Part shown: positions 60,011 through 61,342 of the stretch, in pieces
How the letters are laid out: each line of letters begins with the position of its first letter
How positions within the stretch are numbered: the stretch's first letter is position 1
NCBI GenBank assembly: GCA_040290255.1
Contig: PSMU01000001.1
Coordinates: 328,699 to 392,698, forward strand
DNA length: 64,000 nt
Reading direction: 5' to 3'
From: Nitrososphaerota archaeon
GTDB lineage: Archaea; Thermoproteota; Nitrososphaeria; PSMU01
Position numbers and translations under genes: made by a program
The notes under the pieces: model-generated
Told to the model about the DNA's origin: nothing
What the model saw: the letters and a program-made list of their open reading frames with translations, nothing else
Database searches by the model: none

Positions 60011-61342
60011 CTACCTCATCCTTATATAGGCATAGGCCTCCGTCTGGGACTCGAAGCAGTAGAGGACCCTCTGGAAGGGCCTCCTCAGCTCCCTGACCTC
60101 CTCCCTTACCCTCTCGGGCTCCTCGCCCTTCACCACCCTGGCGATGAGCCTGGCTATCTCCTTCATCTCGCCCTTCCCCATCCCCAGCCTCGTGACCTCC
60201 TGCGTGCCCAGCCGGATGCCCGAGGGGTTCCGGTAGTGCAGTCCCTTCTGAATGTCCCCGTAGAGCAGCTGCCTGTTCACGATGATATTCGCCCTCTCGA
60301 GCCTCCTCTCCGCATCGCCCCCCAGGCAGTACCTGGAGACGTCCACGGCCACCTGATGGCTCTGCGTGAAGCCCCTGCGCTCGCCCACCACATCCAGGCC
60401 CTCCTCGTGGAGCGCCTGGGCCAGGGCCCTCGCGTTCTCCACGACCCTCAGGCAATACTCGCGGCCAAAGGCGAGCATCTCGGCAAAGGCGAGCGCCTTG
60501 CCCGCCACGTGGTGCAGGTGGTGGTTCGAGACGGTGGCCGGGAAGGTGGTGGCCTTTATCACCTCGCCATTCCTTTCATCGCTCACGATGGCGCCCCCCT
60601 GGGGCCCCGGTATGGTCTTATGGGTGCTCATCGTCATCACCCTTGCCCCCTCCCTGAGGGGATCCTGAAAGAGCCCGGCCGCCACCAGCCCGGCCACGTG
60701 GGCGGCATCATAGCAGACGAGCGCGCCCACCTCCTCGAGCGCGGGGGCCAGCTCCTTCAGCGGCTCGGGAAAGAGGATGAGCGAGCCGCCGAACATGGCG
60801 ATCCTGGGCGGCTTATTGGCCCTGGCCATCTCCCTTATCTTGACCCTCGCGGCGTCCACATCTATCTGCAGCTCCTCATCATCGAAGGGCATGTACTGGA
60901 CGTCCAGCCTGCTCACGAAGCCGGCCGTGCCCCTCACCCTCTCGGGGCCCATGGAGACGTGCCCCCCCTTCACGATGGGCTTCACCAGCATGACGTCGCC
61001 CGCCCTCGCGAAGGCGCTGTAGACCACGAGGTTCGCGACGAGGCCCGAGGTCGGCCTCACGTCGGCAAAGGGGGCCCTGAAGAGCTGCTTCGCCAGCTCT
61101 ATGGCGATCTCCTCGGCCCTATCTATGTAGGTGCAGCCCGCGTAGACGCGCTCGCCGGGCCATCCCTGCGGGGGCTATGCCCTCTCCGCGTACCTGTTGC
61201 CGAAGTCGCTGGCGAGCGCCTCCCTTACCGCCGGGCTGGGCACGTTCTCCGAGGCGATCAGCGGAAGCGCCTCGCTGAACCACCTGTGGTGGCGCTGGAG
61301 CAGCTCCAGCACCTCCTCATAGTACTCCCTCGGCCCCTTCAT
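60011..61342 (-). pseudogene. glyA: serine hydroxymethyltransferase interrupted by an in-frame TAG (6-codon insertion in conserved core)
   Basis: N-terminal 56 codons (MKGPREYYEEV...[12 protein letters not shown]...NRYAE) end at TAG 61175-61177; frame continues ...[18 protein letters not shown]... into the 349-aa ORF; removing 18 nt (61166-61183) restores consensus [16 protein letters not shown]. Confidence 0.6.

Follow-up and report, generated by a model that had tools for sequence, protein, structure and literature searches.

We analyzed a stretch of 64,000 nucleotides (nt) from a Nitrososphaerota archaeon (contig PSMU01000001.1, positions 328,699 to 392,698 of the forward strand), here called the window and numbered from its first letter, in which glyA, the gene for serine hydroxymethyltransferase (SHMT), is interrupted by 18 nt with an in-frame stop codon. 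With a probability that we put at roughly 0.9, the glyA pre-mRNA contains these 18 nt as an intron of the archaeal bulge-helix-bulge (BHB) type, and the stop-bearing insert is probably excised from the glyA mRNA.

The interrupted glyA gene

The SHMT gene lies on the minus strand, from 61342 to 60011, and is interrupted directly 3' of the conserved RYAE motif. The insert corresponds to plus-strand positions 61166-61183 (coding strand, AGGGCATAGCCCCCGCAG) and carries an in-frame TAG at 61175-61177. When these positions are left out, the minus strand holds an open reading frame (ORF) of 437 amino acids (aa), which matches the Pfam SHMT family PF00464 over profile positions 6-399 of 399 (E 6.7e-64). 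The spliced protein could be aligned without gaps across the junction (RYAEGLPGKRLYQGC) to the M. jannaschii SHMT of solved structure (4uqv), and the 30 residues of its junction block are identical to those of uninterrupted Nitrososphaerota/Caldarchaeales genes. Excision restores YAE↓GWPGE (arrows mark predicted cuts or spliced junctions), and beyond the insert no other lesion was found in the 437 glyA codons. An earlier reading of the window, made from the letters alone (the sequence-only reading), had noticed an 18-nt in-frame insert with a TAG in this conserved SHMT block and had suggested that its removal restores the SHMT match; the minus-strand translation and the comparisons above confirmed both points.

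Exon 1 (61184..61342, minus strand) comprises 53 codons (MKGPREYY...DFGNRYAE); the gene calls of every assembly list it by itself, as an ORF of 55 aa ('SHMT (weak)'). It is followed by the predicted BHB-type mini-intron AGGGCAUAGCCCCCGCAG (61166..61183, minus strand), which holds the TAG and, with 18 nt, is the shortest member of a site family of 18-33 nt. Exon 2 (60011..61165, minus strand) runs to the stop codon and is shortened by gene callers to 349 aa, starting from the GTG at 61060; a GTG 38 codons downstream is the first in-frame start 3' of the TAG. The open frame of an unspliced glyA mRNA would yield a 55-aa peptide only. In addition, the Glu of the YAEG motif, immediately 5' of the insert site, is presumably the residue that is catalytic in bacterial SHMT. 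Thus, the unspliced product would be useless even without the stop.

Predicted RNA structure of the insert

In the minimum-energy fold, the insert and its flanks have the layout GCGG AG↓A GGGC-AUA-GCCC CCGC AG↓G. This local fold, consisting of the GCGG/CCGC helix, a 3-nt bulge and the GGGC-AUA-GCCC hairpin, holds 80% of the ensemble. All of its elements are on the minus strand. The exonic strand of the 4-bp central helix (H_A, GCGG, 61186..61189), which covers an Ala codon and the first base of a Glu codon, pairs with the intronic strand (H_B, CCGC, 61168..61171). The 5' bulge AG↓A, a 3-nt bulge in the fold, occupies 61183..61185, with the predicted cut between 61184 and 61183, and the minimum-energy inner hairpin h' (GGGC-AUA-GCCC) occupies 61172..61182. 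The 3' bulge AG↓G, the trinucleotide AGG after the helix, occupies 61165..61167, with the predicted cut between 61166 and 61165. If both bulges are cut behind their second nucleotide, the segment that is lost is precisely the 18 nt defined by homology.

In published descriptions of the BHB motif, a 4-bp helix lies between two bulges of 3 nt each (PMC5829648), and archaeal introns are cut between bulge nucleotides 2 and 3 (PMC2738675). The glyA element agrees with this description in several respects: the strands of its 4-bp central helix end 2 nt before the 5' and 3' junctions, its two 3-nt bulges are on opposite strands, a cut between nucleotides 2 and 3 of each coincides with the exact exon junction, and the inner helix h' closes the intron. 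When random or shuffled 18-mers were placed at the glyA junction, such an in-register geometry arose by chance in only ~1e-4 of trials. Because the outer helix has only 1-2 bp, the element is the relaxed HBh' form and not the canonical hBHBh' form.

A second complementarity was observed between the exons themselves. A segment of exon 1 (GCGCUCGCC, 61211..61219, minus strand) and a segment of exon 2 (GGCGAGCGC, 61148-61156, minus strand) are perfect 9-bp complements. An exon-exon complement of at least 9 bp arose in 34 of 2000 shuffles, and the pairing is partly kept in a close relative (L077) via synonymous changes (GCG to GCC, CGC to AGG). This complement might clamp the exons together, or it may be due to chance.

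A family of inserts with conserved structure

To find homologous inserts, we used a degenerate DNA pattern (DF.(N/H)RYAE, then 10-40 nt, then GW(P)). It had one match in the window (0 expected) and, among 97 loci, matched intron-bearing loci only. The 39 matches in a metagenome collection comprised 3 chance matches and 36 SHMT genes, each interrupted at the identical site by an insert of 25-33 nt; an earlier metagenome scan with a pattern derived from the window-type intron sequence gave no match. Since the metagenome scan covered one site, and only genes with the DF..RYAE/GW motif, it underestimates the prevalence of such inserts.

One fixed template (4 exon nt, a 3-nt bulge, a hairpin, 4 intron nt and a 3-nt bulge) was applied without any fitting to 38 sequences, and all 38 agreed with it. 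The central helix had 4/4 pairs in 35 sequences and 3/4 pairs in the other 3, and the bulges were AA↓A or AG↓A on the 5' side and NN↓G on the 3' side throughout. The inner hairpin varied from 4 to 11 bp, and hairpin sequences were unrelated between lineages.

Covariation was measured in a gapless alignment of 24 distinct rows (alignment A1), which extends from 8 exon nt through the two strands of the central helix, the bulges and the hairpin to 9 exon nt, with the hairpin interior removed and the outer 4 bp of the hairpin at fixed positions. Standard pairs were present in 96.3% of cells, compared with 75.6% in shuffled alignments, and the covariation score was 0.672 vs 0.234; in both cases the observed value was reached by none of 500 shuffles. 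When the partners were slid by 1-3 columns, pairing fell to 26-51%. In the central helix, 97.9% of cells were paired and one pair was fully covarying, and in the outer 4 bp of the hairpin all cells (100%) were paired, with two-sided changes at 4/4 pairs. Most relatives have an outer helix of 2 bp (A-U, Y-G), for which 85% of cells were paired. The pair between the wobble base of the exonic Ala codon and the intron was G-C in 11, C-G in 10 and A-U in 3 of the 24 rows and was unpaired in none, so that GCGG occurred with CCGY, GCCG with CGGU and GCAG with CUGY. Without selection on the RNA helix, this covariation between the insert and the Ala wobble base, a synonymous position, would be difficult to account for.

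Proposed splicing of the glyA transcript

In the glyA transcript, base pairing between the exonic GCGG (Ala-Glu codons) and the intronic CCGC would create the 4-bp central helix, the GGGC-AUA-GCCC hairpin would be the inner helix, and each splice site would lie within one of the 3-nt bulges (AG↓A and AG↓G). EndA, the splicing endonuclease of tRNA and rRNA, is predicted to cut both bulges behind their second nucleotide, and an RtcB-type ligase would join the exons into ...UAC GCG GAG↓GGA UGG... (predicted spliced junction, ...UACGCGGAG↓GGAUGGCCC...), which would encode the normal 437-aa SHMT. The structure, its register with the homology-defined junction, the conservation and covariation across at least 12 lineages, the selection on both exons (see below) and the independence from a single assembly are shown by the sequences; we infer cleavage, ligation and the enzymes responsible.

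The relaxed HBh' form needs an EndA of broad specificity, either (alpha-beta)2 or epsilon2, and (alpha-beta)2 enzymes are widespread in TACK archaea (PMC5829648). On the basis of that report and of a TACK-like affiliation of the window, the host EndA is presumed to belong to the (alpha-beta)2 class, which would handle relaxed motifs. The affiliation appears TACK-like from the ribosomal proteins S26e and S30e, both encoded in the window, and from the SHMT tree, in which the window protein groups with TACK-type sequences. To our knowledge, S26e and S30e are restricted to TACK and related lineages.

A number of results weigh against a BHB intron and should be considered together. With respect to structure, the outer exon-exon helix h is only 1 bp in the window, which falls short of the strict hBHBh' motif. 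The fold was not significantly more stable than shuffled sequences (z = -0.30 and +0.71), because the context has 67% GC; the case for the intron rests on geometry, register and covariation rather than on thermodynamic stability. A scan of the window for the BHB motif alone was non-specific, with ~13,500 raw matches and 148 after a frame-joining filter, and is uninformative because the window DNA is GC-rich. With respect to products and enzymes, searches for the window, marine and hot-spring lineages turned up no identical uninterrupted full-length protein and no spliced-form protein or cDNA, and neither endA nor rtcB was found in the window or the readable flanks. Finally, tRNA genes, and with them any intron-bearing tRNA, were found neither by ARAGORN in the window or nine loci nor by Rfam in the window.

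Alternative explanations

Of the other explanations, one that keeps a functional SHMT without EndA and RtcB fares best, but we consider it improbable. The ribosome might hop over the hairpin (translational bypassing), or the RNA might be processed by enzymes other than EndA/RtcB. A stop soon after the junction together with a hairpin superficially resembles T4 gene 60. However, hopping is at odds with the codons at the junctions: matching take-off and landing codons were present in 0 of 38 sequences (GAA/GAG vs UAA, CAU, UAU, AAU, UUG, UGG, UAG, UUA, CAG). A different processing route is at odds with the nature of the conserved feature, which is exactly the BHB template, with a 4-bp helix ending 2 nt 5' of each junction and 3-nt bulges; we know of no other pathway that requires this template.

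Pseudogenization, which the sequence-only reading had put forward, would mean that a small stop-bearing insertion inactivated glyA and that the organism has no SHMT or uses another copy. The in-frame TAG is within a catalytic-site motif, and gene callers give two fragments. The closest relative argues strongly in the other direction. This relative (P0009; 85% aa identity; six contigs read, L077-L080, L094 and L095) is syntenic, with the order CysRS and GTPase, then SHMT, common to both, and it carries an insert of 19 nt at the identical site (UACGCGGAA↓AGGGUUUCCACCCCCGCAG↓GGAUGG). This insert shifts the frame and places the two gene halves in different frames. The relative retains the central helix and the bulges. 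Its inner stem is GGGU/ACCC in place of GGGC/GCCC, which amounts to a compensatory C-G to U-A change, and its loop is UUCC where the window has AUA, so that the hairpin reads GGGU-UUCC-ACCC. At a synonymous divergence (dS) of 0.55 between the window gene and this relative, the ratio of nonsynonymous to synonymous divergence (dN/dS) was 0.163 when calculated over the entire gene and 0.10 over the 53 codons 5' of the insert. Both gene halves are thus kept as working coding sequence by purifying selection while interrupted. Moreover, the 437 codons hold no further lesion, and the sister lineage and at least 12 further lineages keep the interruption, their compensatory changes preserving the RNA structure. 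Inactivation of glyA is therefore contradicted and appears highly unlikely, and the metabolic loss expected from it (no Ser-Gly interconversion) is most likely wrong, since the insert is better read as an intron.

Even less probable is recoding of the stop codon, in which the TAG would be decoded (for example, as pyrrolysine) and the protein would carry six extra residues. The window insert is indeed in frame, and TAG is the pyrrolysine codon, but the sister insert has 19 nt and 31 of the 38 homologous inserts are not multiples of three and shift the frame, whereas every one of the remaining 7 contains a stop (TGA, TAA or TAG). The insert is conserved as an RNA structure and not as protein, no tRNA gene was found in the window, and the site directly follows the YAEG Glu that we take to be catalytic. 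Read-through, also raised by the sequence-only reading, does not agree with these data.

That the 18 nt are a consensus error of a metagenome-assembled contig (ENA ERZ1673965 NODE_4) has a negligible probability: 13 recorded contigs contain the downstream fragment of 349 aa (P0001), the insert is base-for-base identical in all 9 contigs read, which belong to ENA and Logan assemblies that are separate and cover different runs and which show 0-1 mismatch over the whole gene, and homologous inserts occur in dozens of unrelated assemblies. The description of the 18 nt as a tiny insertion was literally correct but misses that the insert is an apparent intron with a conserved RNA structure.

Two further candidates were rejected. 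A split enzyme of two subunits is unlikely, as a second subunit that started from the GTG 38 codons past the stop would lose a conserved block of 11 residues. A self-splicing group I or group II intron needs a core of hundreds of nt, compared with the 18 nt of the insert, and a comparison of the window with Rfam gave nothing at gathering thresholds.

Further sites and multiple putative introns in glyA

The putative introns are not limited to the site of the window, hereafter site B (RYAE↓GW). In a group that is nearest to a Bathyarchaeia sequence (L109, L118, L122, L125-L127 and L132), each glyA has three mini-introns, at sites A, B and D, which follow the same cut rule. The site A insert has 27-28 nt and the layout [UCCG] AA↓A (ACCCAGCA) UAAAC (UGCUGGGU) [CGGA] AA↓A, with a fold z of -4.6, and its excision restores ASE-N-IPSP. 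The site B insert of this group has 26-27 nt. The site D insert has 29 nt and the layout [UGGG] AA↓U (AGCAGCAGC) UAAG (GCUGCUGCU) [ACCA] AG↓A, and its excision restores HLVAG-K-AVAFAEML.

A second insert, of 33-35 nt, is present in two hot-spring contigs (L114 and L129) inside the Glu codon of GWPG-E-RVY (site C). The strict template fails at this site in both contigs, and the fit is only a relaxed one, with 3/4 of the central helix and one extra unpaired base. The complete chromosome of Atabeyarchaeia-1 (Asgard; CP147779) has a frame-breaking glyA insert of 38 nt (L057:3152-3189) that is flanked by CUGG/CCAG, has a fold z of -2.6 and is relaxed BHB-like; an intact ORF of 440 aa is obtained after its excision. 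This insert and those of the hot-spring contigs share the codon phase GGA G↓AG CGN, and the wobble base of the Pro codon at site C tracks the intron base (CCU with A in L057, CCC with G in L114 and L129).

Removal of the predicted introns by one rule gave a single ORF of ~440 codons in every complete gene, including those with two and three introns. The triply spliced protein of L122 (L122:1557-2948) was gapless at all three junctions when compared with the spliced SHMT of the window and matched the Pfam SHMT profile at positions 6-399 of 399. In total, four glyA intron sites were identified, all of which are within the two most conserved blocks of the protein.

Distribution of putative glyA introns

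Intron-bearing glyA genes form at least 12 clusters at 80% aa identity, and the named SHMTs nearest to them, 56-78% identical, are from Nitrososphaerota, Bathyarchaeia and Geothermarchaeales. The GC content of intron-bearing loci ranges from 29 to 60%, and that of the window is 67%. In a rough neighbor-joining tree without support values, carriers were interleaved with intron-less lineages; the clade of the window adjoins an intron-less relative of 70% identity (GCA_030157145.1), whose empty site reads UAU GCG GAG↓GGC UGG.

Database proteins of reduced length, found independently of the DNA pattern, provided further cases. Two of three hide site B introns (a new 32-nt variant in L138 and 31 nt in L139). 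The third (L137:1432-2736; JGI 3300045904) comes from an intact intron-less glyA with the site UAC GCU GAA↓GGU UGG and is 83% identical to the intron-bearing L100 group. The close similarity of this intron-less gene to intron-bearing relatives indicates that gain or loss of the site B intron has, in places, been recent.

We also looked for interruptions of other genes. No second gene called in two pieces was found by a gene map based on GC content at third codon positions (GC3) and by Pfam calls over ~56 kb of the window and its flanks, the 43-51 kb part of the window being without Pfam calls and its 43.1-47.5 kb part being read as ORFs. In 266 kb around other glyA loci, a scan for introns gave 30 matches, of which ~13 were in glyA and none was convincing elsewhere; the non-glyA matches were weak and mostly came from two GC-rich loci, and a reversed-sequence control gave 5. 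Thus, the phenomenon looks specific to glyA rather than genome-wide, as far as these scans suggest.

Surroundings of glyA in the window

At window coordinates just below those of glyA, a 602-aa protein rich in Ala, Leu and Gln, with a signal-like N-terminus and no Pfam match, is encoded at 58202-60010 (plus strand), and a membrane-anchored MarR/DUF7343-like protein is encoded immediately upstream of it at 57361-58212 (plus strand). The same gene pair also adjoins glyA in the 85% relative. On the other side of glyA, CysRS occupies 62611-63999 (minus strand); its starts differ between assemblies (441, 419 and 471 aa), and the true start is uncertain.

The region 43600-46650 differs from the rest of the window in its GC content (52-60% vs 67%) and has no high-GC3 ORFs. 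It encodes three small proteins (148, 126 and 147 aa), each with a signal or anchor sequence at the N-terminus, as well as a signal-peptidase-like ORF (44915-45355) and a protein of 426 aa that carries a membrane anchor at its C-terminus. The region is possibly a horizontally acquired cluster for a pilus or surface structure.

ARAGORN found no tRNA in the window (1-64000) or in L090-L093, which overlap the window and extend beyond it. This gap may be due to chance, or to tRNAs whose non-canonical introns escape ARAGORN and Rfam.

Comparison with known systems

The nearest precedent is the splicing of cbf5 pre-mRNA, which was shown experimentally in Crenarchaeota (Aeropyrum, Sulfolobales and Desulfurococcales) (Watanabe et al. 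2002; Yokobori et al. 2009, PMC2738675). In papers from 2009 to 2020, cbf5 was the sole archaeal coding sequence reported with a BHB intron (PMC7714728), and the examples given in later reviews and structural papers are no different. Full-text searches for SHMT together with bulge-helix-bulge, or for archaeal glyA introns, returned no paper, within the incomplete coverage of the literature. Hence glyA appears to be the second protein-coding gene known with BHB introns.

The introns of cbf5 and glyA have much in common. Both are short BHB-like introns in a coding sequence that are cut, or in glyA predicted to be cut, between the second and third bulge nucleotides; the motif is often relaxed, which for cbf5 has been linked to hetero-oligomeric EndA; and the distribution is patchy, with inferred gains and losses and routine mis-annotation as a frameshift or a split gene. 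On the other hand, cbf5 is an RNA-modification gene (pseudouridine synthase), whereas glyA encodes a metabolic enzyme and is not a member of the cbf5 family. The cbf5 introns occur in Sulfolobales/Desulfurococcales, whereas those of glyA occur in Nitrososphaerota- and Bathyarchaeia-related lineages and in one Asgard genome; a single glyA gene holds at most three of them, four sites are known in all, and the window has a very small copy of 18 nt. Splicing was shown by experiment for cbf5 and is deduced from sequence for glyA.

Relaxed HBh' introns are also known from tRNAs of Crenarchaeota/Thermoproteales (PMC5829648). Like the glyA element, they combine a 4-bp helix with a 3-nt bulge and an inner hairpin, their outer helix is weak or absent, and the presumed enzymes and the size range are alike. 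The host of the glyA introns differs in being an mRNA, in which the Ala-Glu codons constrain the exonic strand, so that codon wobble covaries with the intron. Marck and Grosjean are said to have described, in 2003, non-canonical tRNA introns with relaxed HBh' motifs.

Among mRNAs, Haloferax volcanii HVO_1309 has a BHB intron in its 5' untranslated region (Schwarz et al. 2020, PMC7714728). It resembles glyA in that an mRNA is the substrate of the splicing endonuclease, but its intron is located in an untranslated leader and leaves the reading frame uninterrupted, whereas the glyA introns split codons in the most conserved blocks. The eukaryotic pair HAC1/XBP1 provides a more distant parallel, in which a short mRNA intron is removed by an endonuclease and an RtcB-type ligase, the frame changes and an active protein results. 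The nuclease in that system is Ire1, which acts on a twin stem-loop as part of a regulated stress response. A short mRNA intron and a presumed RtcB-type ligase are shared by glyA, whose substrate is BHB and not a twin stem-loop.

Implications

The simplest view is that the glyA intron is a nearly neutral element that can be lost only by exact deletion. There is also some chance, which we regard as rather low, that the glyA mini-introns are not neutral, and that they represent an old, position-conserved family of TACK-related and Asgard archaea, persisting either by lateral spread through the conserved exon flanks or because splicing gates SHMT synthesis. This view draws on the presence of four sites in the two most conserved blocks and on the single codon phase common to Atabeyarchaeia and a hot-spring lineage.

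Under either view, a second host gene that occurs in at least a dozen lineages and holds as many as three introns would make endonuclease-dependent mRNA splicing in archaea more than the curiosity of one gene. Gene callers split or shorten glyA (55 and 349 aa here; 327, 375 and 405 aa elsewhere), which makes the gene look broken, and with glyA mis-annotated in this way metabolic reconstructions of these uncultured archaea would wrongly lose serine-glycine interconversion and methylene-folate supply. The covariation of codon wobble and intron makes the glyA family a clean set of substrates for the specificity rules of EndA, and the four clustered sites, together with the patchy distribution, bear on intron gain, loss and transfer. 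If the mini-introns are indeed not neutral, no protein-coding gene of Archaea before glyA would have been known to have several introns spliced via the endonuclease pathway. Should splicing gate SHMT synthesis, the tRNA-splicing machinery would tie one-carbon metabolism to the RNA-processing capacity of the cell.

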